Source: a virus
Virus record (IMG/VR): IMGVR_UViG_3300043313_000168
Coordinates: 2,978 to 66,977 of that record
Strand: one strand, 5' to 3'
DNA length: 64,000 bases
The notes under the pieces were generated by a model that saw only the letters and a list, made by a program, of their open reading frames with translations, made no database searches and was not told where the DNA came from. Of this stretch, positions 453 through 61,831 are shown piece by piece; the stretch's first letter is position 1; each line of letters opens with the position of its first letter. The position numbers and the translations under genes were made by a program.

Positions 453-467
453 TTACCGTCGCGGTAA
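453..467. repeat. Dispersed palindrome TTACCGYNRCGGTAA copy 1 (intergenic)
   Basis: TTACCG TCG CGGTAA. Confidence 0.95.
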
Positions 468-468
468 A

Positions 469-873
469 TCAAGCATCGCCGGCGCGACGGACGCCGATGG
501 TGCGTAGGGCTGAGAGTTTGACGCCCGGGGGTTCGACCTTCTTCTCCGCGATGTAGTCGCGGACCGCGGTGGCGTTGGCCTTGCGGTCAAGAAGGTCCCA
601 GAGGCTGTTGGCGATAACGAACTTCATGAAGTCCTGCGGGTCGGACAATGACGCGGAGTATCGAACAGAGGAGTAGACCGTACCCCCCGATGTCTTAATA
701 CTTTGCGCACCCGATGTGTCGAGCGTCTCCTGCAGCTTCGTGGTGAGCTCGTTCTGCATATCGGTAAAGGGTTGCAGTTCCTCTTCGTGCCGCGTCTTGA
801 TCGCCTTGATCTTGTCGCGCAGGGCGACATAGTTCTTGACGTGGTTGTCGACGCGGGCCGCGTGGTCGGTCAT
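469..873 (-). CDS. Conserved phage coiled-coil protein of the replication module
   Basis: MTDHAARVDNHVKNYVALRDKIK...; GAGG RBS; ATGA overlap with the upstream stop. Confidence 0.7.
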   Translation of the reverse strand: MTDHAARVDNHVKNYVALRDKIKAIKTRHEEELQPFTDMQNELTTKLQETLDTSGAQSIKTSGGTVYSSVRYSASLSDPQDFMKFVIANSLWDLLDRKANATAVRDYIAEKKVEPPGVKLSALRTIGVRRAGDA

Positions 874-1147
874 GTGATTTCCTCTATGGTTATGCGGCAA
901 CGCACCGGGGTCGGTACGCGCCAGCCGTGGGGGTAGGTCCTCAAATCGGGTCGGTTACGAATGTAGCCGTAGTGCTTTTCGATCCACTCTTTGCACTCGC
1001 GGCGGGTACGGAAGCCCGCCAGCGTCGCACCATCGCAGCCACTGTCCCTAGAGGGTGGAATTGAAGGCGCACATACGTCCCGTCGAGGCCTCTCACAGAG
1101 CGCCACTTCACGTACCAGCGTGCCTCGACCAGTGTGGGGACGATCAC
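870..1147 (-). pseudogene. Small phage gene split by a -1 frameshift near 1030-1065
   Basis: N-terminal half (W.VKWRS..GLDG) lies in ORF 941..1147 and C-terminal half (FRTRRECKEWIEKHYGYIRNRPDLR.YPHGW) in ORF 870..1283. The outer ends make GTGA and ATGA overlaps with the neighbouring genes. Confidence 0.55.
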
Positions 1148-1473
1148 TTTTTCTTGTTCCCGAACAGGTTGCGAAGCATGTTCGCGCCGTCGGTGTCGTC
1201 GGCGCCGAGAGCTTTGCGCTCAGCCTCGCACGCCTCGCAATGGCATTCAGGGTTGACGGCGACCTTGGCGGCGGTGCTGTCATAGGTGAGGGCGATGCCG
1301 CGGCAGATCATCTCGCGGACTTCGTCGGGCTGGTTAAAGCCGGGGGCGAACATCGCCATCGGGGCAGCGTCCTCGTTGAACAGGATCACAACTGCGCCGT
1401 GGGCAGAGGGGACACGCTCCTTAAAGAACTCAACCATGTCTCTCTGGAATTGGACTGGGTCCTGATTTTTCAT
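1144..1473 (-). CDS. Hypothetical protein with a CxCxxC motif
   Basis: ORF coupled to the helicase stop (ATGA); CHCEAC. Confidence 0.65.
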   Translation of the reverse strand: MKNQDPVQFQRDMVEFFKERVPSAHGAVVILFNEDAAPMAMFAPGFNQPDEVREMICRGIALTYDSTAAKVAVNPECHCEACEAERKALGADDTDGANMLRNLFGNKKK

Positions 1474-3056
1474 GCTGCTGCCTGCGTTGCGTTAGAGAGC
1501 ATTTCCAGTAGGGCTTCCTGCACTGACTGCTTAGCCCTTAACATTGTGTAAATTTTCCGTTCAACAGAAGTTGATTGGAGGTGGATGATTTGCTGCTTGT
1601 GTTTCTGCCCGACCCTGGTGATGCGGGCATTGGCTTGGTCATAGATGTCCAGTGAAGTGATCGGCATATACCAGATGATGGTGTCGGCGGCGGTGAGTGT
1701 GATGCCGTGGGCCAGACACGCCGGGTGCGCGAGCAGCACCTTGTACTTGTCAGTGTTCTGGAAGGCGTTAAAAATCCGCGAACGCTCGCCTTGGCTCACT
1801 TGTCCGTGAACGGTGGCGAACTCGATGCCTGCCCCGGTGAGCACGTCCGCCACGCCCCCCAGTGTGTGGATGAAGGGCACGAACACCAGCACCTTGCGCT
1901 CGTTCTCGGCGATCAGGTCGACCATCACGTCATGGCGGGGTTTCGCGTCTGTCGGGATCGCGATGGTCGAGCCGTTGGCGTCCTTGCCGCCATAGACCCA
2001 GCCGCCGCTGACCTGCAGGAGCTTGCCCATGGCGACCGCCGCGTTCACCGCTGTCACCTTCTGGCCGGCGATGTCCGCTTGGAACAGCTTCGCCAACTGC
2101 GTGTAGATTTTGTTCTGCGTCGGGGTGACAGGCACGTCGATCGTGCGGCTGACCACCTCCGGCAACTCCACGACCGCGTCGAGTGAATAGCGCACGTTCG
2201 GCTGCAACATCCTGAAAGCGGTCTCGATGGCGTCGTCCTTGGGAACCCACTTGAAGTTGTTCACCTTGCGCATCAGCATTTCCTGCGCCTGCCGGAAATA
2301 CTTCGGGACGGTGTGGGGAGTGACAATCTTGGCCTGCGCCCACACGTCTGTCGGGTCATTGGGCATGGGGCGGCCAGTCATCCCCCAGCACACTTTAAAG
2401 CGTTCGCTGAACTTGCGCATCGCCTTGGAGCGGTCGGAGTTGTTGCGGTAGACGGCTAGCTCGTCGAGGACCAGCACGTCGATGTCTGTGCGCAAGAGCA
2501 GTTCTGCGGCGACGGTCTTGAGCCCGTCATGGTTGATCACGAATATCTCGGCGTCACCCCTTAACCTTTCGAGGCGCTTCTGCTTCGAGCCGTGGAGCAC
2601 TGCCACCTTGCGGTGCGGCAGGGTCGCGAACACCTCGGCGGCCCACACAAAGTCGAGTGTGCTCAGGGTCGCGACCACCAGCAGCTTGCCGACCAGCCCC
2701 TCGGTGTGGAGATAATCCCACGCCCACAGCGCCGCCTTCGTCTTGCCGGTGCCCATGGAGTTCAAGATGTAGGCGCGCTGCGCTGTCGTCATCAAGTCGC
2801 AGGTCGAGCGCTGCACGGCGAACGGCTTGCCGCCGCGCCAGTCGTAATAGCAGAGCATCGGGTTCGGTAGCTCGTAGCCCAGATGCCTCAGCGCGATGGT
2901 CGAGTGCAGGTCGTGCGGCACCACCAGTTGCTGTTCGCCAAGGTGCGCCAGATTGTGCGCTCCTGGAAACATGGTGATGGTCCCGCCCGTCCGCGGCACG
3001 ACCAGTGCGCGGTTCGCTCGGGAGACAATCACATGACCCTTGGTGTTAGCTAACAT
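1470..3056 (-). CDS. SNF2-like (superfamily 2) DNA helicase
   Basis: Motif I MGTGKT, motif II VLDEL, motif III MTGRP, C-terminal HGITL and QANARITRVGQ. Confidence 0.92.
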   Translation of the reverse strand: MLANTKGHVIVSRANRALVVPRTGGTITMFPGAHNLAHLGEQQLVVPHDLHSTIALRHLGYELPNPMLCYYDWRGGKPFAVQRSTCDLMTTAQRAYILNSMGTGKTKAALWAWDYLHTEGLVGKLLVVATLSTLDFVWAAEVFATLPHRKVAVLHGSKQKRLERLRGDAEIFVINHDGLKTVAAELLLRTDIDVLVLDELAVYRNNSDRSKAMRKFSERFKVCWGMTGRPMPNDPTDVWAQAKIVTPHTVPKYFRQAQEMLMRKVNNFKWVPKDDAIETAFRMLQPNVRYSLDAVVELPEVVSRTIDVPVTPTQNKIYTQLAKLFQADIAGQKVTAVNAAVAMGKLLQVSGGWVYGGKDANGSTIAIPTDAKPRHDVMVDLIAENERKVLVFVPFIHTLGGVADVLTGAGIEFATVHGQVSQGERSRIFNAFQNTDKYKVLLAHPACLAHGITLTAADTIIWYMPITSLDIYDQANARITRVGQKHKQQIIHLQSTSVERKIYTMLRAKQSVQEALLEMLSNATQAAA

Positions 3057-3479
3057 CGAACTTCTCTCTCAAAACCATCCGGGCTCGTTCCTCGTCGGTC
3101 GCGTATTCCACTCGATAGTAGTCGCTGTCGACGGCTCGCGAGAGGCGCCGCCACTGACACGCGTTAGTGCGCCAGTGCCACCACCGATGCTTGCGCTGTC
3201 GGTAGAGCGGGTTGCGTTCCCATTCGCCCCAGTCTACGGGCAGACCGACGCCGTAAAGGAGGACGCCCATTACCGTGACAGTAAATCTTTGATGGTCGCT
3301 ACGCGCTGTCGCGAGAGCGCGTCGTTCGGGTGCGCTTCCAAGTGCGCCATGATCCCGGCGAGTTGCTTCGTCAGCCGCTTCTCCTTGCTACTCGGCGCGC
3401 AGGTGTTGTTGCCGGTGCGGACGCGTCGCTGGGCGGGGGCTGCTGGGCGCTCATCGTCAGTCTTGCTCGAAGTCGACAT
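3046..3479 (-). CDS. Two small hypothetical proteins (3046-3270 and 3270-3479)
   Basis: Tightly packed ORFs in the operon with coupled start/stop codons. Confidence 0.5.
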
Positions 3480-3786
3480 GATAAAACCTTCTGTGCACGT
3501 GAATAAGGGCGATGGCCTTCTCGCAGCTTTCCTCGTCGTGAACCCGGAGGACCAGCCCGCCAGCGACCGCGATGGCCGCAGCGGTACTCTCTTGCGTGGG
3601 CGTTAATTTTTCCTTCCCGCTGGCCTTCGTCTCGATGGTGACGAACATGCCGTCGATGCAGAGGATAAAGTCGAGGGCCGGGGCGCCATAGCCGGACTGC
3701 ACCGGCATGAATGTCCACGCCTTCGGAAAGTGAAGCTTGATCTTCTTCTTCAGCATGGCTTTGATCCGGCCCTCGGGAGTGCTCAT
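3457..3786 (-). CDS. VRR-NUC domain nuclease
   Basis: PEGRIKA...GYGAPALDFI...IETKA...LTPTQ pattern, adjacent to SNF2 helicase. Confidence 0.85.
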   Translation of the reverse strand: MSTPEGRIKAMLKKKIKLHFPKAWTFMPVQSGYGAPALDFILCIDGMFVTIETKASGKEKLTPTQESTAAAIAVAGGLVLRVHDEESCEKAIALIHVHRRFYHVDFEQD

Positions 3787-4109
3787 GTCGGCCAGCCACC
3801 GTCCTCACCGCCATCATCATCATCATCGTCCACCACTGTGGGGTTCGGGTTGACGACCAGCTTGTAGCTGTAGAGCCCGTTGCCGAGGAAAAAGCGCAAG
3901 ACCGTGTGTGAGCCGAAGCGCTTCTTCCGCATGTGCCGTAACTGCGCACTGACAGACGCGGGCGGGGCATTAGTGGCCGCCGAAATCTCGGGCAGCGTGC
4001 GCGACACGCCGTCCTTCATCAGGTCGAAGATGCGCCGGTATTGAACGCTCAGACGGGAGTGATCCCGTTGAGTGACATATTCCGGTCCGTTGAAGTGTGG
4101 TGTGCTCAT
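3783..4109 (-). CDS. Winged helix-turn-helix DNA-binding protein
   Basis: RIFDLMKDGVSRTLPEISAATNAPPASVSAQLRHMRK followed by a beta-hairpin GNGLYSYKL; acidic tail. Confidence 0.7.
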   Translation of the reverse strand: MSTPHFNGPEYVTQRDHSRLSVQYRRIFDLMKDGVSRTLPEISAATNAPPASVSAQLRHMRKKRFGSHTVLRFFLGNGLYSYKLVVNPNPTVVDDDDDDGGEDGGWPT

Positions 4110-4936
4110 GTCCACCTCGTGAAATCTGGGGGCTCGGGTTGCCCGGCCAAATCGCTCGGCTCGGGATTTTCGTTTACCGTCGCGGTAACTTCGCGCTCGG
4201 GCCGGGATTTTGGGGTCCGCCGGCGGACGGGCGAGGCTGCCAGCGCCTTTTCAATCGCCGCAACTGGATCGTTGCCGTCCACTCCGACGGCGTAGCCCCC
4301 CTGGGGAGACGCGGCTGCGAAGTTGCAATGGAACGCGTCGTTCTTGAACGCGACGGAGAGGTGGACGAACTCGCCCTTCTTGGCGAGAGCACGCAGGCGT
4401 TCTTCAAGCGTCGGCACGGAGAGCCTCCTTGTTGGCTTTGGCGATCTGGGCGCGAGCACCGCCACGAACGGCGGGTCGCGTGTAGGGGTGCGGCACGATG
4501 ATGAAGCCGTGTCGCTCCATGTGCTCAACGATGCGCCGCCCGTCGAGGCCGTGCTTCATGATGGCATTGGCGAGCGCCGCCCTCGCTTGGTCGCCAGTGT
4601 GTGATCGGTTGCTAGGTCCGGCCATAACGATCCTCCAATGCTTCGCGCGCCACTCGGGTCGCGCGCTTGTACTCGTATTTGAACGGGCCGATGCTCTGGT
4701 CGAGGCGGAAATGCCAGCTTTCACGTCGCAGGTTCTGTCCGATCCAGCGCCGCCAATGCCACCACGGTGTCAGCATCCACGGTCGCCGCGTCGGGGCCGC
4801 CTGTGCTACTCCTGCGGGTCGGGCCATTTCTACCGGGTCCGTATATTTGTAGCCTTCGATCTGCTGGCTCGTAGCAACCACAGGCCACGGGTGCTTGAAC
4901 TCTATCCCCTCGGCCCCTTGCCGTGGAACGGGCATG
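4106..4936 (-). CDS. Three hypothetical proteins (4106-4417, 4404-4625, 4612-~4936)
   Basis: Overlapping ORFs; GGAGG RBS before 4417 and 4625; start of the third uncertain. Confidence 0.5.
4174..4188. repeat. Dispersed palindrome copy 2 (in CDS, about 65 bp upstream of the wHTH gene)
   Basis: TTACCG TCG CGGTAA. Confidence 0.95.
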
Positions 4937-5612
4937 ACTGCACCACGCAATGGCGCTTGCACAGGCCGCTCGGTTTGGGGGGGAACGCCTGTGCCTTTGT
5001 TGCTGTCTCCAAAGCGGTTACCCGCGGCAATAAGCTCACCCATTGATCCGCTACCTCTTGTCTGTCGAACACTTCGGGGGTCGTGCACTCTTCCTTCAGC
5101 CAAACGAACTCGCTGCGCACCTTCTTCACATTCGGAAAGTGCGAGAACAGACACTGGGCCATCAGCATCAGCTGGACGCTGTCCTCTAAAATCTTGCCAG
5201 TTTTCCAGTCGAGGATCAGCGCCACGTCATCCCAGATACGCACGACGTCGCCGATGCCGCGGTACCATACGTTGCGGGCGAAATAGGTCGTAGCTTGGAA
5301 GTCGCGCGTGATGGCGTACTTCTGCTCAACAAAAAGCTGGCCGGGGCCAGCCTTCACGCGATCCACCCACGTCTGGAACGTCGCCATGTCTGCTGGCAGC
5401 GGCGCGGCGCCAGAGATGGCCTTCGCCAGCGCGGCGTGCACGGCGTTGCCCCAGTCGAGCGGCCCACCCGGGACGTTCTCTTCGGCATAGGTCTTGGCGA
5501 GGTCGATCTCGTAATGCCGCTTCGGGCACACGTCGAAGTTCTTGAGCTTCGAGTAGGACCACGACCATTCTTTCGCCGGCTGTGGAACGCCGATACCTGC
5601 TACTTTGGCCAT
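4902..5612 (-). CDS. PD-(D/E)XK / Cas4-like exonuclease
   Basis: WSYSKL..F..CP, GNAVH, VE, IGD, LDWKTGK, QL, C-terminal LC..HC...SCPF cysteines. Confidence 0.88.
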   Translation of the reverse strand: MAKVAGIGVPQPAKEWSWSYSKLKNFDVCPKRHYEIDLAKTYAEENVPGGPLDWGNAVHAALAKAISGAAPLPADMATFQTWVDRVKAGPGQLFVEQKYAITRDFQATTYFARNVWYRGIGDVVRIWDDVALILDWKTGKILEDSVQLMLMAQCLFSHFPNVKKVRSEFVWLKEECTTPEVFDRQEVADQWVSLLPRVTALETATKAQAFPPKPSGLCKRHCVVQSCPFHGKGPRG

Positions 5613-6238
5613 GTCGCCCCCTTCTGTCGCCCGTCGAGCAGGTCGAGCGGGTCGCCCTGAACGTGCGTCGTGCGCCGATTCAATATCTGGGCGATCTCGT
5701 TGACGGTCATGTCGAGGCCCCCAACGATCAGTGTCTTTCCGGGCTCGGCAGCGAGAAGCGCGTCGACGGCGACGCTCACGTGGGCGTAGGTTCTCATCTG
5801 CTCACCCGTGCCCCGCACTTCGGCGATGGCTGCGGCTCCGAACTTGTCGACCACGCTGTGTCCGCCCGCGCCAAAGACGTTGGGGAAGCGGACGATAGCC
5901 GCACCCACGTGGGCGGCGTAGTCCTCTGCCGCGCGCTTGGAAATTGCATACGGGGTGTGGGGGTAGTTGACCATCGAGGACGACGCGAGCACGAGGCGGT
6001 TACCGTAACGGTAAAGAAGCCGCAGCGTGCCCATGATGTTCACTTCGGCGCTACGGACGAACTCGGGGTCAGCGGCCGCGGTGTTGGCGGCCAGATGGTA
6101 GACGCGATCCGCATCCGGCAGGTCGCAGGTGAGGATGTCCTTGCCCTGCCTGAGGTCAATGCCGATGTAGTTGCCGTCGAGGCGGCGGCCCAGATGTCTG
6201 CCGATGAAGCCCATGTCACCAGTGATAATCGCTACCAT
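5600..6238 (-). CDS. NAD-dependent epimerase/dehydratase (NDP-sugar, extended SDR)
   Basis: ITGDMGFIG Rossmann motif, HLAA, NIMGT, ASSS, catalytic YAISK, RFPNVFG. Confidence 0.88.
   Translation of the reverse strand: MVAIITGDMGFIGRHLGRRLDGNYIGIDLRQGKDILTCDLPDADRVYHLAANTAAADPEFVRSAEVNIMGTLRLLYRYGNRLVLASSSMVNYPHTPYAISKRAAEDYAAHVGAAIVRFPNVFGAGGHSVVDKFGAAAIAEVRGTGEQMRTYAHVSVAVDALLAAEPGKTLIVGGLDMTVNEIAQILNRRTTHVQGDPLDLLDGRQKGATWPK
6000..6014. repeat. Dispersed palindrome copy 3 (in epimerase CDS)
   Basis: TTACCG TAA CGGTAA. Confidence 0.9.
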
Positions 6239-6651
6239 TTCACGTCTCCCGCCTTGCGTTCGGCCAGCGAGAGGCGCCTGACGTTGTTGTGGGCGGTCTC
6301 TTCAAGTTCAAGCTCGCTTATCATTTTGTGGGTACGGGGGTCGAACCGGGCTAGGTCCTGCTCATCGAAGTCGTCAATCTTGAACGCGTCGGGGCTGAAC
6401 TTCGCAGCGTCCACCGCCAGCGCGATGTTCGCGACCAGCTGGGTGCTGGGGTACTGCTCGCGTAGATCAGTGAAGTCGACGCCGCCCACGCGCAGTGTCA
6501 CCTTTTCAGGGTCGTTGGTGTTGACGATCTCCACAGCATGGCCCGCGATCAGCTTGGCCATGGTCTGAACCCTAGCCTGCGCCTCTCGCACCATCCACGC
6601 GTTCTTGTCTGCGTGCTCGGGGCTGTCGCCTATTCCGATAGGTGTTTTCAT
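6232..6651 (-). CDS. Hypothetical protein, paralog of 6648-7064
   Basis: EQYPSTQLVANIALAV motif. Confidence 0.65.
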   Translation of the reverse strand: MKTPIGIGDSPEHADKNAWMVREAQARVQTMAKLIAGHAVEIVNTNDPEKVTLRVGGVDFTDLREQYPSTQLVANIALAVDAAKFSPDAFKIDDFDEQDLARFDPRTHKMISELELEETAHNNVRRLSLAERKAGDVKW

Positions 6652-7064
6652 TTGTCATCCCAAAATGAGGGCGGGGTTAAGTGCTTGCGGTACTCGGCAC
6701 GGCTGCGCTGCTCTGCCGCTTCCTTCTCTTGTTCGGCAGTCATTCCCTTCACGCCGTTGAAGCTGTCGAGGGCTCCGATGGCGAGGCCGATGTTAGCGAT
6801 CAGTTGCTCGCTCGGCCATGTGTCACAATAGGTCTCGATCCAGCGGACGTGACGATCGGCAATGAGGACCACCACGCGATCGCGGCGCTTGTCTTTCTCG
6901 GCCCAAGTCAATCTCACCTTTTGCGCTTCGGCCCACCGTTCGAGGAGCTCCCGACGGGTTTGCACCTCTGCCGCGCATCCGTACTTTGAGTAATACTCGC
7001 GCTCCCCGTTCATCGCTGCGATGTAGGCGCCTTGGCGCATCTCCAACTCGGTTTTGGTCGGCAC
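6648..7064 (-). CDS. Hypothetical protein, paralog of 6232-6651
   Basis: DTWPSEQLIANIGLAI motif; AGGAG RBS. Confidence 0.65.
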   Translation of the reverse strand: MPTKTELEMRQGAYIAAMNGEREYYSKYGCAAEVQTRRELLERWAEAQKVRLTWAEKDKRRDRVVVLIADRHVRWIETYCDTWPSEQLIANIGLAIGALDSFNGVKGMTAEQEKEAAEQRSRAEYRKHLTPPSFWDDK

Positions 7065-7095
7065 GGCCGGCGATCTCCTGGTTGGCGCGGCTCTG

Positions 7096-7110
7096 TTACC
7101 GCCGCGGTAA
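7096..7110. repeat. Dispersed palindrome copy 4 (intergenic)
   Basis: TTACCG CCG CGGTAA. Confidence 0.95.
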
Positions 7111-7112
7111 AT

Positions 7113-7631
7113 CTAAAGACGTGCAGCGCGCGGCAGCGGCAGACCCAACTCGTCTTCGAGTTCTTGCTGCAGCAGCGCCATCGCGCGCCACGCCAATGCG
7201 GCGGTGTGGCGAATGCGATATTCGGTGCCGTCCACGACAACGATGTCGTAGCCACCGCGTTCCGTCAGATGTCGCGCGATGCAGTCAGCGTGATCCATCG
7301 ACTTGCCGCGCGCATGGTGCATCGGCTCGCCGGGATTATGCTTCATGTTGCCGATGCAAGAGACGTTCGCCACGGCGGCGCACGCGTCGGGGAAGTAGTC
7401 GATCAGGCCGGTGCACATGGGCAGCGTCTTGCGATACGCGCTGTCGCCAGTGATCAGGCGGGCCACGTTGGGATTGGAGCGCTTGCTCCCCACCTTGCCC
7501 TCCGCCACCCTCTTGATCAGGTGGTAGGCATCGCCAGCGGCGTCGTTGCCGGTCGGCGGCGCGGCCATCGCCGCGATTTCGGCGGCGGCGACACTTTTAT
7601 TATTACGCGCGCGTTGTGGCTTATGCTGCAT
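7113..7631 (-). CDS. dATP/dGTP diphosphohydrolase-like protein (DUF5664-type)
   Basis: YFPDACAAVANVSCIGNMKHNP...DCIARHL...HTAALAWRAMALLQ. Confidence 0.75.
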   Translation of the reverse strand: MQHKPQRARNNKSVAAAEIAAMAAPPTGNDAAGDAYHLIKRVAEGKVGSKRSNPNVARLITGDSAYRKTLPMCTGLIDYFPDACAAVANVSCIGNMKHNPGEPMHHARGKSMDHADCIARHLTERGGYDIVVVDGTEYRIRHTAALAWRAMALLQQELEDELGLPLPRAARL

Positions 7632-10127: not shown

Positions 10128-10134
10128 CAAGGCT

Positions 10135-10160
10135 CCGGGGGAGGGGCTTGCCCTCCCCGG
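10135..10160. other. GC-rich stem-loop (GAGGG/CCCTC family) directly upstream of the polymerase gene
   Basis: CCGGGGGAGGG-GCTTG-CCCTCCCCGG. Confidence 0.55.
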
Positions 10161-54094: not shown

Positions 54095-55602
54095 TGGCCG
54101 GCAACTATGAAGGCCTCGATTACGAGGACACCGAACTCAACCCCGCCATGGGCGCCATCCCGGAGCCGGTGGATGAGCCTGCGATCCCGGAAGGTGACGC
54201 GCCGACAGGTGCTGCGCCGGCTATCCCTGACGGGCTGGACGAGAGCGCGGGCCTCGACATGCGCAAGCGCCGCGACCCCAACGCCACGCCGACGTCAGGC
54301 CTCCTCGCCGACGCCGAGAACACCGCGCCCGTGCAGGGCATCCGCAAGCTGGTGAGCTATCTCATGGGAGGCGGCTCCGCTCCGCCACAGGAGGCGCAAC
54401 GTGCTGTCGCTGAAATTAAGCAGACTAATCCCGGCATTAGTGACGACGATGCTAATCTGCTGGCTGTCCATCAGGCTGGTCAAATGGGCGGTCCGGGCGC
54501 TGCCTGGGGAATGGTCCAGTATAACCGCACAGCTTACAACGCAAAGCAGAGCTTCGCTAAGGCGGCTCTCAACGGCATTGACGGCAAGGCTGGCGATTTG
54601 GCTGCCGCCGCTGACGCCGCAACCAAGGCTGGCGCGCACGTCATTGATGGGTCGACTGCGGTCTTCTCTGCCGGACCGGGCGGAATTACCGCCACGGTAA
54701 CGGACCCGCAGACCCGCGAGCGGCAGCAGTATAACCTCACGCCGCAGCAGTTCAGCGAGTACCTCGACGTCGGCAAGGTCGGCCAGTGGGACAAGGTCAT
54801 GGCGCAGGGCATCGGCCCGACGCTGACCGGCATCACCAAGAGCACTGGACCACAAATGGGACAAATCGGCAATTTGTCCGCGCCAACTCAACCTGAGCAA
54901 TCCAATTTCGGAACGACGCCGTCGACGCTCGACCTCTCGGGGGCCCCCAAGGGTGATCTCCGCGGGTACAAGCCGCTCGACTACAGCGCGATCGACGACC
55001 CGAAGTCGTCGCTGATTGCGCGCGCCAACCAACTGTTCCCGTCCGTGTCGCAGCAGGAGCAGCGCACCGCGTGGATCGCTGCGCAGTCCGAGCGCGAGGA
55101 CGAGCGCGAGAACAAGCTCGGCGTCGCCAAGGCTGGACAGGAGGGTCGCCTTCAGGTCGCCCGGGAGACCGGCACGCATCGGGAGAACGCTGCGCAGACC
55201 CGCGCCACCGGAGAGGTCGCCAAGCAGACCATCCGCAGCGAGGGCAATCTCGCAGTCGCCGACAAACAGGCGGAAGCCCGTGCGAAATCCGACCAGCAGA
55301 AGGCCGCGCAGTTCGCCGCCAAGCTGGAACAGCAGGGGCGCACCGCCGATGAGCGCGAGCGGGGCAAGATGGCTCGTGCCGAGATCATGAACCCGAACTT
55401 CCTCCTGCAGTCGGATGAGCAGCGGAACGCGGTGCTGAAGAAGTACGGCATCGGCACGAACACGCCGCAGGCACCGACGCCGGGAGCAGCCCCGCAAGGT
55501 GGCAGCGCCGGGCCGGTAAAGGTTTCTTCACCTAGTGAGGCTAACAAGTTGCAGCCGGGCACCGTGTACGTCACGCCGGACGGTCGAAAGTTTACGCGCT
55601 AA
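54094..55602 (+). CDS. Internal virion / ejection protein
   Basis: 502 aa, helical; C-terminal L.PGT.Y.TPDG module; in the ejection operon. Confidence 0.65.
   Translation: MAGNYEGLDYEDTELNPAMGAIPEPVDEPAIPEGDAPTGAAPAIPDGLDESAGLDMRKRRDPNATPTSGLLADAENTAPVQGIRKLVSYLMGGGSAPPQEAQRAVAEIKQTNPGISDDDANLLAVHQAGQMGGPGAAWGMVQYNRTAYNAKQSFAKAALNGIDGKAGDLAAAADAATKAGAHVIDGSTAVFSAGPGGITATVTDPQTRERQQYNLTPQQFSEYLDVGKVGQWDKVMAQGIGPTLTGITKSTGPQMGQIGNLSAPTQPEQSNFGTTPSTLDLSGAPKGDLRGYKPLDYSAIDDPKSSLIARANQLFPSVSQQEQRTAWIAAQSEREDERENKLGVAKAGQEGRLQVARETGTHRENAAQTRATGEVAKQTIRSEGNLAVADKQAEARAKSDQQKAAQFAAKLEQQGRTADERERGKMARAEIMNPNFLLQSDEQRNAVLKKYGIGTNTPQAPTPGAAPQGGSAGPVKVSSPSEANKLQPGTVYVTPDGRKFTR
54686..54700. repeat. Dispersed palindrome copy 14 (ITATVT)
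   Basis: TTACCG CCA CGGTAA. Confidence 0.95.
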
Positions 55603-55614: not shown

Positions 55615-58600
55615 ATGGACGAGGAATGGCCGGGCGAAGCATGGCCGGGCGAAGAGGCTCCTGTAGCAGAGCCCACCCCAGCCCCGACGCAAGCGCAGGC
55701 AGCGCCGGCGAACGAGGAGCAATGGCCGGGCGAGCAGTGGCCCGGTAAAGAACAGCCCAAAGCAGAGAGCCTTCCAGGTACGTTCACGCGCGAGGCGCTT
55801 CACAGTGCTGTCCCTGCCGCCGGCGGCATGCTGACGGCTGGTGCGGCCGGTGCGCTGGCAGGCACGTTGGGCGCAGGCCCAGTCGGTACGTTCCTCGGCG
55901 GCCTTGCCGGCATGATCGTCGGCAGCATGGCTACGGACAAAGTCCAGGAATACGCTCTCGACCAGATCGGCTTCGACGACGCCGAGCAGCGCGCGGCCAA
56001 TATGGCCGAGAACCCCAAGACCTCGTTCGCGGGCGGGCTCGCTCCTGCGCTGGCAACCATGTCGCCCGTCAAGGGCGTGCAGCTTGCGCAGCGCGGCATC
56101 GGCGGCGGACTGATGGGCGGCTTCGAGGCAGGACAGGAGTTACTCCATGACGACCATGTCGACCCGTTTAAGGTTGGTGCGTCTATCGTCGCGGGAGCCG
56201 CACTTCCAAAGGCAAATCGCGTTGGTGAGGCCTTGCTTAACACTGGCGCAAAGGCTGCGAACCGGATCGTACCCGGTCGGCCCGGTCAGCAAGCGAACCC
56301 TGCTGCAGTACCTGCGCAGGATGAAGCTGCCGCCTCGCAGCAACAGACGGTCACCGGGGAGGCTTCGCTCGCTCAAGACCCACCTCCCGTATCTGGTGAG
56401 ACGACCGGCAATCCGCAGTCGGCTCCTTCGCGATCCGCGCGGACGTACCCTAAGGGCGATGTCGCAGAAACTCCGCGTGGGGATATTCTCTCTCAAGGAG
56501 ACCTCCCGCCTGACGTTGCCCAGGCTCTACAAGCCTCTCTGGACAGCAATGCGCTCAAGCCCGAAACGCTGCCGGACCTCCCCCCTCAGCCGGACCCGTC
56601 GCTTCGCCAAGGGCTGAACCCCGGCGAAACGCTGCCGATCGAAACTGGAATTACAGAAGCTGCGTCCCAGCCGCAACAGGCGGTTAAATTACCCCGTGTT
56701 CGTCGGAATAAACCCCCTATCGAAACAGGCCTAGAAGAGGCAGCCGCGGCAAACGCTGGCGAGGCGCCGGCGATCGTGGGTGAGTTCACGACGTCGAAGG
56801 GCTCCACCTATCAGGTCCATCCGGACGGCACGACCACGCGCACCAAGGCTGCACGGCCCGATCCCGGCCACGAAGGGGATGAGGGTCTGAAGCCGAAGTC
56901 GGAGAAGACCTTCTACCTGACGAAGGAGCAGGCCGACGCGCTAGCTCCGCCGCAGGACAGCCGCTTCATGGTCATTGATAACGGCGACGGCTTCCTGTCG
57001 CTCGCCACGCCGGGCCAGGATGGCAAGTGGGGTATCGCACCGTCCCAGCGCATGGTGGGCCCGACCCACCCTGAGCCGGTCGAGGGTGCACACCCGCTCG
57101 AACTGTGGGGTCGCGGTAAGTCCGAGAAGACTGGCACCGTCGGCTATAGCGCGCTCCACTTCGGCAACAAGATCGAGTACCTCGGACAGAACAAGCCGAA
57201 GGACATGCGCGCACGGGCTGAGCCCACCGGTGAGTGGCGCAACCTCAGCCCGGACCAGCCTGCGCACCCGGTGCACGAGAAGATCAACACCGCCGCTGCC
57301 GATGTTCACCCCGATCCTACCCCCGGGCAAGGTGAGGCTGGCAACTATAAGAAGGGTCACCCGGGCCGCGTGTTCGGCCGCGAGTTCTCGATCGAGACCG
57401 CAAAGGGTGGCACGCGCAAGGACCTGAAGAACGACCCGCCGCAGTGGGAGGTCAAGGACTATCCGACGCATTACGGCGAGTTGCTGGGCACCAAGGGCGC
57501 GGACGGCGACCGGCTGGATTACCACCACGTCGGCACTGGCGATCGTCACTTCATCATCGACCAGCGCGATCTCGGAACGCGCAAGTTCGATGAACACAAG
57601 ATCATGGGTTACGCCAAAGACGTCCACGATGCCGCGGACCACTACCAGCGCGGCTTCAATGACGGCAAGGGCGGAGACCGGCTGGGCTCGATCAAGGAGG
57701 TCAGCGAGGACGACCTGAAGGCATGGCTCGCCAAGCCCGGCAAGAAGAAAGACCCCTACGATCCTAACTTCAAACACCCTGAAGGCAGCGAGCCAGTCGC
57801 CACCGAGGGCGTCAAGCCCCTGCCGAAGGTCGTTACCGCCGCGGTAAATGAGCTTAAGGCCAAGGGCAACCACGAGGCCGCAGCCAAGCTCGAAGCCATG
57901 GAGCCGACCGAGCGCCTGAAGGTGGCGTCGCAGTTCGTCAACAAGACTGGGACCGAGCTCGCTCGACCGGATCGTATCCGCACGCCGGCGCCAACCGTCG
58001 AGGGCATCCTCAACGACCAGGGGCAGCCCGTCACTGCAAACTCAAAAGCATCTGCAGCGGCGAAGAGCGCCGACGTCAAGGTGATGAACGACGCATTCGC
58101 CAAGCACTTGCCCGAGGACATCAAGGTCCCGACCACGCCCGAGGAGAAGGCCGCGTTGCGGCAGCAGGCGCAGGACTTCCTCGACGCCACCAAGGACGTC
58201 ACGTATCGGCCCGCGCTGAAGCACGCGCCCTACCTCTATGCTCGCGCGGCGAAGAAGCTCCTGACGGCGAAGAACCCGGCCGACAAGTCATGGCAGGAGT
58301 TCGTCGAGATCGCGCACCAGTTGAAGAACGGTGGCGAGACGGACGTGCGTCAGGGCCAGCGGATCAACGCCGACATCGAGCGCAGCCGTCGTAGTGGTGA
58401 GGATGCCCTCGCCGACGCTGAAAAGAGAAGCGCGAGTACCAACACTGTCGAAGATGAGATGATCGCCAATCTGGACGCGAAGCGCGCCGGCAAGGATCAG
58501 GGCTATCTCGACGTGCCGCACGAAGAGGCGGAGGGGATGGTCAAGCCGCAGGCCGTCACCGCCGAGAACGTCGAAAAGTTCGAGACCAAGACCGGCAAGC

Positions 58601-61575
58601 TCGATCTGGCGAAGCCCGCCGATCGTATGAAGCTGCAGAGCGACAGTGCTCAGCTGGCAGCGAACCTTGTCAAGGAAGCCAAGCGCGCGCCGCCGGTGAA
58701 GGAGAGCGAAGGTGGCGCCTCGCCGGTGCGCAAGATCAGTGTTGCCGGCGTCGATGTCGACGCGATTTTGGCGCGTGCTAAGAAGGCGGAAACGAAAAAC
58801 AAAACCAGTGAGCATGCGGTCCGTGAGGATGAGCTTGGCGGTATCCACAGCGACAAGACTGCGCCGCGCGATAAGCTCGCCGAGTTCTGGAACAATGAGA
58901 GCGGTTCGCTCGACTATAAGAAGCTGACGCAGTCGTTCCGTTCCTGGGCCAAGCCGATCAACGAGTTCTACACCAAGACCTTCGGAGGCTTGACCAACGA
59001 TCGCCAGTTGCGCCTAGACCCGATCCTCGCGCGGGCGCTCTCGCACGAGAGCTCGCAGATGGCTGAGAAGGCGCGGGCGCTGTACGACACGCGCTACTAT
59101 CAGTGGCTCGACAACACCAGCGGCAAGGGTGAGCGGCTCGCCTACATTAAGACCATCGAGAAGCCCGAGCACGACACGCCGGCGAAACTCAAGCAGGCGT
59201 TCACCGACGCCGGCATCCCTGCCAAGAACATCGACTGGATGGTCGACGAGGCTATGTTCCATCGCAAGCTGATGGATGAGGTCTGGCGGCAGGACGCTGC
59301 GCACGGCTCCGACGCCGGCTACATCAAGAACTACGTCGCCCACATCTTCGACAACGCCAAGGTCGGCGGACAGACGGCTGACCAGTTCATCCACAACCGC
59401 GTACAGAGCCTGGGCCCGACGTGGTACCAGAAGGAGCGCGTGTTCGATCTGATGGAGGCGGCTATCAAGGCCGGCTTCAAGCCCAAGTTCGACAACCCGG
59501 TCGACATCCTCAACGCGCGCTGGACCGCCTCGATCCGTGCCAACACCATCGTGGCTGCGGCGCGCAATCTGCACGAGGCCGGGCTGGCGTTCCCGATCAA
59601 GGACCTGCCCGAGACCCACAAGGGTCTATTGAACGCGTGGACCTATAAGCGCCAGCTACCCGATCGCCAGCAGTGGGTGTTCTCGCCCGACGCTGCGCTG
59701 CTCTGGGAGAACTCCATTGAGCCGCACGGTCTGTCCGAGAACAAGTACAAGCCGGGCTCGGTCTACCGCGCGTGGATGCAGGTCAAGAACTTCATGGTGC
59801 CGGTACAGCTGATGCTGTCGCAGTTCCACGCCTTCCACGTCGTGGCCAACATCATGCCTGCGCAGGCGCTTTACAACGCGATGGAGCGCAGCCGCGGCGA
59901 CGGCAAGTGGTTCAAGAATTTCGGGCAGGCGGCGAAGGAGATCGCCAGCGATGGCGCGTTCGCCGTGCCCATGTCCGTGCCTGTGCTCGGCAACTTCCTC
60001 CACGCCAAGGGCTATGGCGACAAGCACATCGGCCGCGGCATCCAGGAAATCTGGCGCATCCCCGATGCCGAACTCAGCGGCAACGAGGTGATGGTCAAGA
60101 ATATGTTCAAGGAGGCGGGAGCGTCACCTTACCAGTCACACGAGGACGTCATCGGTGCCAAGCGCAAGTTCGCTGAGGCGGTGAACAAGATGTCCGAGGA
60201 CCCGGGCCTGCTCGCTGCCGGCAAGGTCGCGATCAAGGGACTTCAGCGGGGCATGGAGCTCCTGCAGGAGCCGCTGTTCAAGCACACGATCCCGGCGCTG
60301 AAGAACGCCGCGTTGCTGCGTAGCTTCCAGACTGCGCTCACCAAGGACCCCACGCTGGCGTCGAACCCGACGATGCGCCAGACGGTGTTCCGTGAGCTCG
60401 CCAAGGACATCGACGATCGCTTCGGTGAGATGTTCTACAAGGGTTTGTTCTGGGACAAGACGCTCAAGGACGTCGGCATCGGCTCGATGCTGTCGTTGTC
60501 GTGGAACCTGGGTCAGGTGCGTCAGGTCGCCGGCGCCGCCGCGCAAGGTACGCGCATGGTCAGGAACGCCCTTGGCATCAACGACGGCTCGAACCTGCGC
60601 AAGGCGCGCGAGGAGGCCTCGAACAAGATCGGCTTCGTCTCGCTCTATGCTGGGCTCTCCATGGTTACCGCCGGCGCCATCACCTGGGCGCTCACTGGCG
60701 AGCGACCGAAAGAACTCACCGACTATGTGTTTCCGCGATCTGGTCACATCGACCCGGAGACAGGCCATCCGCATCGCCTGACCTCGCCGTTCAACACGCG
60801 CGAAGTCATCATGCTGAAGGCGCACGCTGACGAGCACAACTCCTGGGTCGGCGGAGCGATGCAGCTGCTGTGGAATAAGATGATCCTGCAGCCGGTCACC
60901 GAGCTCTGGACCAACCGCGACTTCTTCGGGCGCGCGCTCTACGACACCAACGCCCCGGCATGGAAGGCGACGCTGCAGGGTATCGACAGCGTCCTCGGCC
61001 GCTCGCTCTCGCCCATCTCGATCAGTGGCGCCGACCGTGCCAAGCAGCAAGGTCTCGGTGTGAAGGGGCAGGCGCTCTCCTACCTCGGCTTCGGCCCGGG
61101 TCCCAAGTACGTCAACGAGACGCCGTTGGAGCGCCGCATCAACCACCTCTCGCACACCTACGCGCCGCAGCACCGGCCGTATGAGTACGGTGAGAAGACC
61201 GGCGCGGGCCGTGGGCTCGTGCAGGGGGCAGTCCGCTACTTCGCCGAGGATGAGACCAAGAGCGAAGCACGGACGTCCGCACGCAACGCCCTGAACCAAG
61301 CGCGCACCGCCGGCGACAGCGAGGCCGAGTTGGAGGCCCGCCGCAAGATGGTCACCAAGGGGGAACTGTCCTCGCGCATCGTGAGCAAGATGGTTCCCGG
61401 CCGGCAGTTCGAGGGTGAGTTCGGGCGGCTCCCCAAGGAGGAGCAGCTGGCGGTCGCTAAGACTATGTCAAACGAGGAGTTTCAGCGCTTCGTCATGACC
61501 AATAAGGACGTACCGCGGGCCAACCGTCTGGCGCTGATGCAACAGTGGGCCGCGCAACGGAATGTTAAGCCTTAA
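55615..61575 (+). CDS. Large polyvalent internal virion protein with an inorganic-pyrophosphatase-like domain
   Basis: 1986 aa; GNYKKGH...SIET.KG..R...HYG...GT.GADGD.LD...IDQ....KFDEHK at about 57340-57660; C-terminal LPD38-like region (EL.TNRDFFGR). Confidence 0.8.
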   Translation: MDEEWPGEAWPGEEAPVAEPTPAPTQAQAAPANEEQWPGEQWPGKEQPKAESLPGTFTREALHSAVPAAGGMLTAGAAGALAGTLGAGPVGTFLGGLAGMIVGSMATDKVQEYALDQIGFDDAEQRAANMAENPKTSFAGGLAPALATMSPVKGVQLAQRGIGGGLMGGFEAGQELLHDDHVDPFKVGASIVAGAALPKANRVGEALLNTGAKAANRIVPGRPGQQANPAAVPAQDEAAASQQQTVTGEASLAQDPPPVSGETTGNPQSAPSRSARTYPKGDVAETPRGDILSQGDLPPDVAQALQASLDSNALKPETLPDLPPQPDPSLRQGLNPGETLPIETGITEAASQPQQAVKLPRVRRNKPPIETGLEEAAAANAGEAPAIVGEFTTSKGSTYQVHPDGTTTRTKAARPDPGHEGDEGLKPKSEKTFYLTKEQADALAPPQDSRFMVIDNGDGFLSLATPGQDGKWGIAPSQRMVGPTHPEPVEGAHPLELWGRGKSEKTGTVGYSALHFGNKIEYLGQNKPKDMRARAEPTGEWRNLSPDQPAHPVHEKINTAAADVHPDPTPGQGEAGNYKKGHPGRVFGREFSIETAKGGTRKDLKNDPPQWEVKDYPTHYGELLGTKGADGDRLDYHHVGTGDRHFIIDQRDLGTRKFDEHKIMGYAKDVHDAADHYQRGFNDGKGGDRLGSIKEVSEDDLKAWLAKPGKKKDPYDPNFKHPEGSEPVATEGVKPLPKVVTAAVNELKAKGNHEAAAKLEAMEPTERLKVASQFVNKTGTELARPDRIRTPAPTVEGILNDQGQPVTANSKASAAAKSADVKVMNDAFAKHLPEDIKVPTTPEEKAALRQQAQDFLDATKDVTYRPALKHAPYLYARAAKKLLTAKNPADKSWQEFVEIAHQLKNGGETDVRQGQRINADIERSRRSGEDALADAEKRSASTNTVEDEMIANLDAKRAGKDQGYLDVPHEEAEGMVKPQAVTAENVEKFETKTGKLDLAKPADRMKLQSDSAQLAANLVKEAKRAPPVKESEGGASPVRKISVAGVDVDAILARAKKAETKNKTSEHAVREDELGGIHSDKTAPRDKLAEFWNNESGSLDYKKLTQSFRSWAKPINEFYTKTFGGLTNDRQLRLDPILARALSHESSQMAEKARALYDTRYYQWLDNTSGKGERLAYIKTIEKPEHDTPAKLKQAFTDAGIPAKNIDWMVDEAMFHRKLMDEVWRQDAAHGSDAGYIKNYVAHIFDNAKVGGQTADQFIHNRVQSLGPTWYQKERVFDLMEAAIKAGFKPKFDNPVDILNARWTASIRANTIVAAARNLHEAGLAFPIKDLPETHKGLLNAWTYKRQLPDRQQWVFSPDAALLWENSIEPHGLSENKYKPGSVYRAWMQVKNFMVPVQLMLSQFHAFHVVANIMPAQALYNAMERSRGDGKWFKNFGQAAKEIASDGAFAVPMSVPVLGNFLHAKGYGDKHIGRGIQEIWRIPDAELSGNEVMVKNMFKEAGASPYQSHEDVIGAKRKFAEAVNKMSEDPGLLAAGKVAIKGLQRGMELLQEPLFKHTIPALKNAALLRSFQTALTKDPTLASNPTMRQTVFRELAKDIDDRFGEMFYKGLFWDKTLKDVGIGSMLSLSWNLGQVRQVAGAAAQGTRMVRNALGINDGSNLRKAREEASNKIGFVSLYAGLSMVTAGAITWALTGERPKELTDYVFPRSGHIDPETGHPHRLTSPFNTREVIMLKAHADEHNSWVGGAMQLLWNKMILQPVTELWTNRDFFGRALYDTNAPAWKATLQGIDSVLGRSLSPISISGADRAKQQGLGVKGQALSYLGFGPGPKYVNETPLERRINHLSHTYAPQHRPYEYGEKTGAGRGLVQGAVRYFAEDETKSEARTSARNALNQARTAGDSEAELEARRKMVTKGELSSRIVSKMVPGRQFEGEFGRLPKEEQLAVAKTMSNEEFQRFVMTNKDVPRANRLALMQQWAAQRNVKP
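57833..57847. repeat. Dispersed palindrome copy 15 (VTAAVN)
   Basis: TTACCG CCG CGGTAA. Confidence 0.95.
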
Positions 61576-61609
61576 GGGGTCATCGTTCCCTTCGGACAAG
61601 GAGAAAATC

Positions 61610-61816
61610 ATGGCTGGTTATTCAAAGGGCGAGAAGCCCCGTAATCTCGAAGCGGCGTGCGGTGGGGGCGTTCTCGGGCGCGTCCGGTCCTTCATCAAGG
61701 ACCACCCGGAAGTGGGCCAGATAGGCCCGGAGAACCCGCAGGACTACTCCGCAAAGGATGCGCACACCAAGCGCACCGGCGACAAGAGCCTGCCCGCGAT
61801 CAAGCCACGGTCGTAA
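61610..61816 (+). CDS. Small basic hypothetical protein
   Basis: AAGGAG RBS; TTAA-rich upstream region (61554-61575). Confidence 0.65.
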   Translation: MAGYSKGEKPRNLEAACGGGVLGRVRSFIKDHPEVGQIGPENPQDYSAKDAHTKRTGDKSLPAIKPRS

Positions 61817-61831
61817 TTACCGTGGCGGTAA
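61817..61831. repeat. Dispersed palindrome copy 16 (immediately after a stop codon)
   Basis: TTACCG TGG CGGTAA. Confidence 0.95.

Follow-up and report, generated by a model that had tools for sequence, protein, structure and literature searches.

A dispersed 15-bp palindrome in a two-armed phage genome and its relatives: selection on the DNA, switched site sets and possible readers

Why would a phage carry the same short palindrome along its whole genome, between genes and inside them, and what would read it? This question is raised by a 64,000-nucleotide stretch of viral DNA (hereafter the window) corresponding to bases 2978–66977 of the 66,977-bp IMG/VR virus record IMGVR_UViG_3300043313_000168, which is rated complete and is labelled G000 as a whole. 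The 15-bp element TTACCGYNRCGGTAA was present in 16 exact copies in the window and in none of 100 dinucleotide-preserving shuffles. An initial annotation, made from the letters alone, had listed 16 coordinates, all of which matched exactly, and its one-mismatch copy at 3270–3284 (G to A in the right arm) was confirmed. It had missed a site at 9097 with a GGA/TCC spacer, so that its rule of a spacer always reading Y-N-R held for 16 of the 17 sites of the window. An 18th copy lies outside the window, at genome position 953, inside the primase-helicase open reading frame (ORF); the whole record held 18 copies, with none for a reversed-pattern control. A relaxed search found three two-mismatch strings in the window, which is about the background (1.13), and 18 of the 27 TTACCG hexamers of the genome fell in full sites. 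The genome (62.3% GC) is that of a two-armed phage, with a leftward replication/early arm and a rightward late arm according to PHROGs and Pfam matches. The ends of the record overlap by 53 bp with one mismatch, and the assembly is therefore circular or permuted.

Selection on the DNA and anatomy of the sites

Five relatives were compared with G000 over their whole length. They shared about 70% nucleotide identity with it, in BLAST alignments covering 7–41%, ranged from 49 to 63% GC, and carried 13–23 copies of TTACC-N5-GGTAA. When the codons of all called genes were shuffled synonymously, proteins and codon usage being kept, 0.07–0.27 intragenic sites were expected in the six genomes of this TTACCG (CCG) class and 8–15 were observed; for G000 the figures were 0.07 and 11. 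According to crude gene calls, six sites of the window are intergenic, ten lie in well-supported genes and one (4174) lies in a weak ORF, so that the eleven intragenic copies counted at first were about right. Two reading frames were used, as had been described: I/V/F-T-A/V-A/T-V-N/T (frame 1) and Y-R-x-G-N/K (frame 2). The third is impossible because it contains TAA. The codons at the sites were indeed rare: the share of GTA among Val codons was 5% and that of GTT 10%, ATT made up 12% of the Ile codons and TTT 14% of the Phe codons, and frame 1 sites require GTA together with an xTT codon (10–14% of its amino acid's codons). At orthologous positions the 12 arm bases were invariant, with diverged flanks at seven of the eight positions compared; the eighth was in the helicase gene, in the coding sequence of a conserved motif, where the flanks had not diverged. 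The sites are real, and selection acts there on the DNA rather than on the protein, since the synonymous shuffles fall short and the arms stay invariant amid diverging flanks. The codon-preserving control and the conservation in relatives thus both bore out this part of the initial annotation.

The anatomy was described on 112 sites, the outer arm bases being fixed by the search definition. Position 6 was a G in 89% and position 10 a C in 96% of these sites, and the spacer read Y (94%), S (92%) and R (94%). The bases next to the arms tended to be G at one end and C at the other (40–44%); the flanks were slightly AT-richer, nothing further being conserved within 20 bp. The 51 intergenic sites of eight genomes had Y at position 7 in 49 cases, S at the centre in 48 and R at position 9 in 49, and their oriented spacer pairs showed no bias relative to transcription (21 versus 19). 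Intragenic sites did show one (50 versus 22), a coding effect given that the intergenic sites lack it. The site is therefore symmetric, in agreement with the target of a dimeric reader suggested at the outset. In the six TTACCG genomes, 95 exact sites were found; those with one mismatch numbered 38 (0.65 expected) and those with two 13 (11.45 expected). Single mismatches were mostly located at positions 6/10 (17), 5/11 (8) and 1/15 (7), the core TACC/GGTA being almost intact. Each one-mismatch site retained one perfect arm, and one-arm hybrid sites exist; with this pattern the arms behave like the half-sites of a dimer.

The circular spacing of the sites in G000 extended from 1,096 to 8,706 bp (mean 3,721 bp), a wider range than the 3–7 kb given at first. 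Close pairs were avoided: the minimum spacing was 526–1,675 bp in the six genomes, with a probability of 0.002–0.075 per genome of a minimum at least as large, and the coefficient of variation of the spacing was 0.53–0.79 compared to about 0.92 for random placement. The largest gaps were not significantly short, and of the proposed tiling only the lack of close pairs stood. Nor do the sites ignore gene structure, as had been thought. Their centres were non-coding in 51 of 146 cases in eight genomes against 17 expected (P = 1.6e-13), 26% lay within 30 nt of a gene boundary compared to 11% for random positions, and many were located between a stop codon and the next ribosome-binding site, 0–2 nt past the stop and 12–31 nt from the next start. 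Promoter and terminator scans showed no association with the sites; a sigma-70-type scan gave one promoter-like site in 1–20000 for 4.0 expected, and the sole terminator-like flag was at the DNA polymerase site. In G000, 11 sites (including genome position 953) belonged to the replication arm of about 23 kb and seven to the late arm of about 41 kb. Several neighbourhoods were shared by the six TTACCG genomes: ahead of the single-stranded DNA-binding (SSB)-like gene (5/6), the 3' end of this gene (4/6), ahead of gene 13105–13554 (5/6, by neighbour assignment), and the primase-helicase gene (4/6 called, plus the G000 copy at genome position 953, by arithmetic). Within such neighbourhoods the sites sometimes shift by tens to hundreds of bases, the region being kept and the exact codon not always.

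This distribution could suggest chromosome-organising or self-marking sites of the matS, Noc or KorB O_B kind, where an anchored phage protein would compact, bridge, protect or label the DNA and where neither transcription nor replication would be the direct target. The 12 invariant and three constrained bases hold far more information than a 67-kb genome needs, about 0.3 chance sites being expected in a host-sized genome of similar GC (a rough base-composition estimate), and the sites are singletons that avoid close pairs, in both arms and within genes. The authors who described a comparable repeat in Cluster O mycobacteriophages reached, in the part of their report available to us, a similar view that it does not control initiation (PMC4351075). 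On the other hand the largest gaps are unconstrained, no direct evidence was found, and no ParB-like, ribbon-helix-helix or similar protein was present among the gene calls scanned. These and the following statements on gene content rest on 53 of the 86 G000 gene calls, scanned with Pfam or PHROGs (Pfam on 39 proteins, among which there was no ParB-like match); for most right-arm genes the coverage was by PHROGs at most, and the gene calls are crude. The sites of KorB (O_B, plasmid RK2) and of SopB (phage N15) are a handful to a dozen exact palindromes on a replicon of about 50–60 kb, some of them far from promoters or in genes, and are read by a dimeric ParB-family protein. They differ from the present ones by an unrelated sequence and by plasmid-prophage features that are lacking here. 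We consider an organising role improbable.

Switched site sets in the relatives

The palindrome is family-wide. A scan of the collection with one spacer class retrieved many viral contigs, ten of them with 3–5 copies in the stretch fetched, and ten whole IMG/VR records of 31–67 kb held 7–21 copies each, the reversed-pattern controls giving none. The GenBank phages nearest to the window by their portal protein were the Rhizobium phages RHph_TM27A/B, TM29 and TM3_14A (56% identity over 84% of the length); no mycobacteriophage was among the portal matches listed, and a megablast search of positions 1–20000 against GenBank phages gave no match. The cultured phage RHph_TM27A, with protein identities of 37–56%, possesses 26 copies of TTACC-N6-GGTAA and eight of the N5 form. 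Its fuller half-site is GTTACC(T), some of its sites occupy the same places in the helicase and polymerase genes, and its 34 sites are spaced as random points. A search of viral contigs with the family of gp43, a 189-aa OmpR/PhoB-type winged-helix protein encoded at 23126–23695 (+), returned 51 loci, where closer homologues were accompanied by TTACC-type sites and some by altered palindromes.

Two genomes carry altered sets throughout. G011 (a complete record of 68.6 kb) possesses 18 TTACGG-N3-CCGTAA sites and one hybrid, and G012 (66 kb) has 15 TACTG-N3-CAGTA sites, six of which have the outer T/A. These sites were found at orthologous positions of TTACCG sites: ahead of gene 23, within the gene-58 family and the primase-helicase gene, and at the 3' end of the SSB-like gene. 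At one switched site, 19 of 19 upstream flank bases were identical and two symmetric positions alone differed. The TACTG class was present in at least three contigs, and the TTACGG class with multiple copies in the G011 record alone among the 120 stretches listed. The motif is thus specific to the lineage. Three further genomes, G013–G015, are without dispersed palindromes. They have the portal, terminase, terS-like gene, capsid and gp43 in common with the window and lack its left-arm genes, except for a 28%-identical helicase in G014, whereas the palindromes occurred in all nine full genomes sharing the replication arm (the six of the TTACCG class, G011, G012 and RHph_TM27A). Since G013–G015 keep the late module without the sites, the palindromes travel with the early/replication arm. 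G014, a more distant relative, has a different replication module, and instead of dispersed palindromes its positions 54340–54906 form a 570-bp non-coding block with nine copies of tandem 9–10-bp iterons resembling CTGCCGTGCC.

A whole set rewritten symmetrically in place means that the reader changed too, and makes a host factor unlikely. The in-place switching points to a co-evolving, phage-encoded reader of two-fold symmetry. In a scan of bacterial genomes that found at least 120 stretches, each of the 80 listed had one site; among these matches, the palindrome is not a host regulon or prophage signal.

The symmetrical rewriting would also suit a hairpin of RNA or single-stranded DNA acting in processing, stability, antitermination or priming. 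The change from C to G or T in one arm is always matched in the other, which keeps the pairing, many sites stand just 5' of ribosome-binding sites, and the outermost pairs of the supposed stem are where mismatches occur most often. However, all the sites of a genome share one sequence, with no site-by-site covariation, one-arm hybrids exist, and the loop rule is symmetric and free of orientation in intergenic sites. As RNA, the hairpin folds weakly (–4.9 to –8.2 kcal/mol), was not the minimum-energy fold for one of the six sites tested, and gave z-scores from –2.74 to +0.59 on six sites. No Rfam match was obtained at the sites, which did not display the stable, oriented and covarying structure of an RNA element. 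For a site of a host factor, the difficulty is that specificity differs between close relatives with near-identical flanks; bacterial genomes hold isolated copies among the matches listed. A hairpin or a host factor is very improbable.

Possible readers and functions

We propose that the palindromes are cis-acting duplex-DNA docking sites for one phage-encoded, sequence-specific protein of two-fold symmetry, a dimer. Its half-site would be (G)TTACCG, with TACC as the core, and the half-sites would lie one helical turn apart around the constrained Y-S-R centre. Selection would keep about one exact site per 1–9 kb and never close pairs, and the sites would favour gene junctions and loosely constrained gene ends, where they are cheapest or most effective. 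The reader and the whole site set would co-evolve, producing sister lineages with TTACCG, TTACGG or T/xTACTG sets. In this model, the bound protein would be a dispersed, stoperator-like roadblock or insulator to RNA polymerase in both arms of a virulent phage, and would gate or stop read-through between genes rather than serve as an operator at the main early promoters. The reading of the sites by a protein dimer is highly likely and its encoding by the phage probable. That the reader blocks transcription is the most tentative step; it is ranked above a replication-linked role because of the placement at junctions, the higher density in the early arm, and precedent. As a whole the proposal falls a little short of an even chance, although we favour it.

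The precedents are found in mycobacteriophages. The closest known feature, by analogy, appears to be the 17-bp 7+3+7 repeat TGTTCGG-N3-CCGAACA of the Cluster O phages (Corndog and others), which was reported without an explained function (PMC4351075). The available part of that report describes 34 invariant copies in Corndog plus three with one mismatch, one third of them being in genes, denser in the early arm and unlinked to promoters in a non-temperate phage, and its authors predicted a dimeric binder (PMC4351075). With more than 30 copies of such a palindrome already described there, the kind of element is not unprecedented. The initial annotation had not recognised the motif as a known consensus, and indeed no characterised match turned up. 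The two systems have in common two invariant inverted arms with a 3-bp spacer, tens of copies per genome for a genome size of about 70 kb, sites that are intergenic, at gene 5' ends or in mid-gene, a higher density in the early arm, and neither a link to predicted promoters nor a meaningful orientation; the phages on both sides are not evidently temperate. The weak G/C positions (40–44%) flanking TTACCG and CGGTAA match the Cluster O layout with arms of about 7 bp. They differ in sequence and in the phages themselves, siphoviruses of Actinobacteria in one case and a podovirus-like relative of Rhizobium phages in the other, and because sequence, lineage and host phylum differ, the Cluster O repeat is an analogue and not a homologue. 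The spacer is Y-S-R here and mostly TTT/AAA in Corndog, and the copies are fewer here (13–23). Positional conservation and the in-place switch of specificity are not reported in the part of the Cluster O paper available to us (PMC4351075).

The roadblock function itself is modelled on the stoperators of the Cluster A phages (L5, Bxb1). In the portions of the literature consulted, these are dispersed sites whose motif, like its reader, differs between heteroimmune relatives (PMC6550527), asymmetric 13-mers oriented with transcription (PMC4351075, PMC6550527) and read by the monomeric immunity repressor of temperate phages (PMC9283540). Both systems show dozens of near-identical dispersed sites in both arms with an intergenic enrichment, and a motif that differs among relatives (here TTACCG, TTACGG, TACTG and the N6 form of RHph_TM27A, with 13–23 sites per genome). 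The present sites differ in being palindromic and free of orientation, in having no copy at an early control region, and in that no repressor or integrase was found among the genes scanned. The switching pattern resembles what is known from repressor–stoperator, initiator–origin and ParB–parS pairs.

Several observations weigh against the proposed roadblock. It is hard to reconcile with the conserved sites that lie within long, essential late genes, and the non-coding enrichment can equally be read as tolerance instead of function. Among the genes scanned there was neither an integrase nor a repressor, hence no lysogeny that such sites would keep silent. In Cluster A phages one motif serves the repressor both as operator and as stoperator; here no site was found in the AT-rich region between the arms (20510–21195), the nearest copies being those at 20199 and 24111. 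A reader was sought among the phage proteins and none was pinned down: a screen of 38 + 7 orthologous families for class-specific substitutions yielded candidates that were numerous and scattered, none of them standing out, and gp43, the sole protein kept alongside the motif that has a clear sequence-specific DNA-binding domain, does not change with it and is also present in the relatives without palindromes. Finally, the link of the palindromes to the replication module would fit a replication role at least as well.

According to this replication-linked alternative, the primase-helicase (by way of a C-terminal winged helix) or another replication-arm protein would bind each palindrome in dimeric form, and the sites, scattered and particular to each lineage, would be where the machinery is loaded or licensed (extra origins, replisome reloading, priming), on the phage's own genome only. 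The 3' third of the primase-helicase gene (about 1,046 aa) occupies 62978–64000 (–). Its G006 orthologue matched DUF927 (E = 2.8e-15), and the model of the C-terminal part contained a beta-beta-alpha-alpha-beta-beta unit at residues 203–269; the best Foldseek matches of this model, all weak, were the SCCmec Cch helicase (E = 2.6e-3) and SaPIbov1 Rep. It is the only replication-arm protein with a plausible sequence-reading part, which makes it a candidate reader on the strength of a predicted fold. The presence of the palindromes in the nine genomes with this arm and their absence from G013–G015 agree with such a role, as do the DUF927 domain and the fold matches. A symmetric site suits head-to-head loading, sites in long late genes fit a need for coverage, and G011 alone turns an otherwise invariant G-T into G-W in the putative wing. 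Initiator–origin pairs diversify in specificity, and SaPI Rep/Cch-type pairs differ in this way between related elements. The change in the wing of G011 is not special, however, because 24 other invariant columns also change there, and the model is poor (mean predicted local distance difference test score, pLDDT, 50.9). Origins are usually clustered iterons beside an AT-rich stretch, as with the iterons of SaPI Rep/Cch gathered at one AT-rich-flanked origin, whereas the palindromes are single, dispersed sites at least 526 bp apart with slightly AT-richer flanks. A separate block between the arms, with a different 9-bp repeat, competes as the origin, G014 has a classical iteron block, and we know of no phage precedent for about 18 single-palindrome origins. 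A replication-linked role is a possibility, if an unlikely one.

In a broader alternative, the palindromes would form a lineage-specific self code: a protein of the replication arm, which may be the primase-helicase, would permit replication, recombination or some other transaction solely on DNA where its own palindrome is scattered in about 18 copies. A switch of one base pair in every half-site, made throughout the genome, would free a sister phage from the machinery of the others, hence the TTACCG, TTACGG and TACTG classes, and virulent phages would in this way possess a specificity system akin to incompatibility or immunity, lying partly inside essential genes. We regard this alternative as doubtful. 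The papillomavirus E2 sites, ACCG-N4-CGGT, give a functional picture of such versatility, a viral dimer binding at several places of the genome for transcription, replication and segregation; the ACCG/CGGT halves are alike, the spacer is N4 and not N3, and the virus is eukaryotic with no evolutionary link.

The early/replication arm is the most likely location of the reader gene. The initial annotation had proposed four ORFs as binders. Three of them (3783–4109, 16263–16439 and 24633–24977) had no Pfam match, and only the fourth, gp43, has a DNA-binding domain, which fails to co-vary with the motif; overall, its interpretation was upheld for selection on the DNA and symmetry, and not for gene structure, tiling and binders. 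Nothing was found for 13105–13554, 15249–15956 and 10168–10890 in Pfam, PHROGs, PDB or ESM Atlas searches, the Atlas returning unnamed viral clusters or no usable match for the last two. Sequence and profile searches of the PDB with the SSB-like, gene-5, terS-like and gene-23 families gave nothing meaningful, and ten plus six small early ORFs had no DNA-binding match in Pfam and PHROGs.

As a reader with the palindromes as its operators, gp43 is the least likely of the explanations weighed, a highly improbable one. It has the sole clear sequence-specific DNA-binding domain conserved in the TTACCG genomes, with a Trans_reg_C match in Pfam (31.3 bits, cut-off 26.2), an AlphaFold2 model with a pLDDT of 86, and a Foldseek probability of 1.00 to the DNA-binding domains of AdeR, ArlR and ToxR (OmpR/PhoB type). 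Its family numbers at least 137 clusters, all metagenomic and on contigs of this phage group, and RHph_TM27A has a weak homologue (E = 1.5e-4). Half-sites one helical turn apart resemble OmpR-family hexamers. Nevertheless, G011 departs at none of the 24 columns that are invariant within the TTACCG class, its recognition helix is the same as that of G006, and homologues of 31–38% identity exist in G013–G015. OmpR-family domains usually bind direct repeats, and the 9–10-bp direct repeats between the arms are a likelier target. The predicted homodimer scored 0.20 and 0.18 relative to a mark of 0.42, which counts neither way. The protein is composed of an N-terminal four-helix domain of helix-turn-helix appearance, an invariant low-confidence linker resembling LPKDDWPPG, and the OmpR-type winged helix.

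The palindromes could instead be programmed nick, cleavage, modification or packaging sites of a strict enzyme such as a nickase, a methyltransferase or the terminase small subunit. Recognition of the core bases is near all-or-none, interrupted 5+5 palindromes with N5 are typical of type II enzyme targets, a site stands in the 5' part of the terS-like gene in five of six genomes, and the phage encodes PD-(D/E)XK and VRR-NUC nucleases (according to scans and the RHph_TM27A annotation). Known phage nick consensi, though, are asymmetric and strand-specific, symmetric nicking would break the genome, and the terS-like gene persists in G013–G015 without palindromes. Enzymes do not normally select for keeping their own targets, and no methyltransferase was found among the scanned genes. 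An enzymatic role is very unlikely. Four further candidates were dropped: promoters of a phage RNA polymerase, as none is encoded among the genes scanned and the site is palindromic; Chi-like sites, the known ones being short and asymmetric; mobile repeats of the miniature inverted-repeat transposable element or repetitive extragenic palindromic type, as the sites keep to the reading frame and are conserved in position; and cruciforms, for which the arms are too short.

The Cluster O palindromes have stayed without explanation since the 2015 paper in the literature found, and the same design is now seen in unrelated, widespread soil phages, where the sites are held at orthologous positions despite about 70% nucleotide identity and 49–63% GC. 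New here are the in-place switching of specificity, the association with the replication module and the existence of a cultured relative carrying the system; no paper was found on this motif or on these Rhizobium phages in a search that covered article texts, those listed for the motif dealing with CRISPR or primers, judging by title. The symmetric rewriting in place hints at competition between co-infecting relatives, and the tie of the sites to the replication/early arm is shown by an exchange of modules that took place in nature. Should the sites serve replication licensing or self-marking, they would add a layer to phage genome biology; should the docked dimer be a roadblock, as we favour, stoperator logic would extend to virulent phages of Proteobacteria. 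Since RHph_TM27A grows on Rhizobium phaseoli and carries the system, bench tests are feasible. The sites also have a practical bearing on recoding and on the design of synthetic phages, as they would be lost through changes taken to be "synonymous".

Individual sites and neighbouring genes

In the leftward arm, the first site (453–467, spacer TCG) is intergenic, 1 nt past the stop of 469–873 (–) and 21 nt ahead of the start of the SSB-like gene, a junction occupied in five of the six CCG-class genomes. The site at 4174–4188 (TCG) is read in frame 1 of the weak ORF 4106–4417 (–), or else lies upstream of 3783–4109 (–). The next one, at 6000–6014 (TAA), is within the epimerase-like gene 5600–6238 (–) in frame 2, and the intergenic site 7096–7110 (CCG) stands 2 nt past the stop of 7113–7631 (–) and 31 nt ahead of the start of 6648–7064 (–). 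The site with the aberrant spacer (9097–9111) is in frame 2 of the DNA polymerase gene 8067–10127 (–); the polymerase genes of G002, G008 and RHph_TM27A have sites at similar positions. Two intergenic sites with a CGG spacer follow, 10959–10973, located 68 nt ahead of the start of 10168–10890 (–), and 13571–13585, located 16 nt ahead of the start of gene 13105–13554 (–). The latter position is also occupied in G005, G006, G011 (CGG type) and G012 (CTG type). After a site at 17858–17872 (TCA), in frame 2 of ORF 17677–18114 (–), comes the intergenic site 20199–20213 (TGG), 20 nt past the stop of the first leftward gene, 20234–20500 (–). This site is the centre of a 33-bp near-perfect palindrome (20188–20222), the sole extension of this kind among 146 sites of eight genomes.

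All but the last of the late-arm sites are read in frame 1. The site at 24111–24125 (CCG) begins 49 nt into the terS-like gene 24062–24793 (+), whose poorly conserved 5' part has a site in five of six CCG-class genomes, in different codons, and in G011. It is followed by 29779–29793 (CGG) in the portal gene 27807–30104 (+), 36579–36593 (CCA) in gene 36335–37456 (+) and 45285–45299 (TGA) in the fibre-tail adaptor-like gene 45065–45364 (+). The internal virion protein gene 47770–50412 (+) has the site 48065–48079 (CCA) 295 nt from its start, and four of six CCG-class genomes have one 283–352 nt into this gene, with diverged flanks. Gene 54094–55602 (+), which holds the site 54686–54700 (CCA), likewise has one in four of six CCG-class genomes. 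The site 57833–57847 (CCG) is within the gene of the 1,986-aa virion protein, 55615–61575 (+). The last one, 61817–61831 (TGG), is intergenic, beginning on the base after the stop of 61610–61816 (+) and ending 66 nt ahead of the next gene; in relatives the site is just upstream of this small gene instead.

The non-coding region between the arms (20510–21195) contains a 9–10-bp repeat resembling ATTAGCTGT, present three times at 20659–20687 and three times in inverted orientation at 20934–20961, 242 bp apart, with further loose copies in the region. From its layout, this block is likely an origin and/or an early promoter-operator block, and its repeats may be what gp43 or the primase-helicase really binds.

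The leftward arm encodes an SNF2-type helicase, a family A DNA polymerase, a PD-(D/E)XK nuclease, the SSB-like protein, a MoxR-like ATPase with a VWA/metallopeptidase partner and, across the contig junction, the primase-helicase of about 1,046 aa with DUF927. The rightward arm contains the terS-like gene, an exonuclease, the large terminase, the portal, the major capsid protein, collagen-like fibres and several internal virion proteins, among them the one of 1,986 aa. Searches for tRNAs and for Rfam families gave no match. A total of 22 soil and sediment metagenome runs matched the sequence through assembled contigs, the best with 0.35 of the sampled words; no RNA run was among them.

The peptide (V/I)(D/E)TG(F/L) is present in the C-terminal tail of the SSB-like protein, at the extreme C-terminus of the primase-helicase (62978–63964 (–)) and at the N-terminus of the terS-like protein (24062–24793 (+)), and is kept in relatives; it may be a shared docking peptide for one partner, for example the polymerase. 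In RHph_TM27A, the 1,027-aa "putative integrase" (MN988461, 42248–45331) is the orthologue of the DUF927 primase-helicase, and the attL/attR features are 14-bp strings in or near genes, so that the temperate annotation of this phage looks doubtful.

Genes 7113–7631 (–) and 7621–8070 (–) adjoin, one with a dATP/dGTP diphosphohydrolase N-terminal domain (PF18909, E = 1.8e-8) and the other with DUF4406 (E = 7.3e-19). These domains suggest nucleotide-pool manipulation or a modified base; no PurZ-like gene was among the scanned G000 genes. Auxiliary-looking genes at 5600–6238 (–), 22553–23068 (+) and 31573–33549 (+) comprise an NAD-dependent epimerase/dehydratase, a fatty-acid hydroxylase family protein and, in the structural module, a glycosyltransferase. 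Long coding repeats of the collagen-like G-X-Y type, some of them in tandem units of 105–123 bp, were observed in several tail-fibre-like genes (30179–31300, 40119–42336 and 44205–44578).

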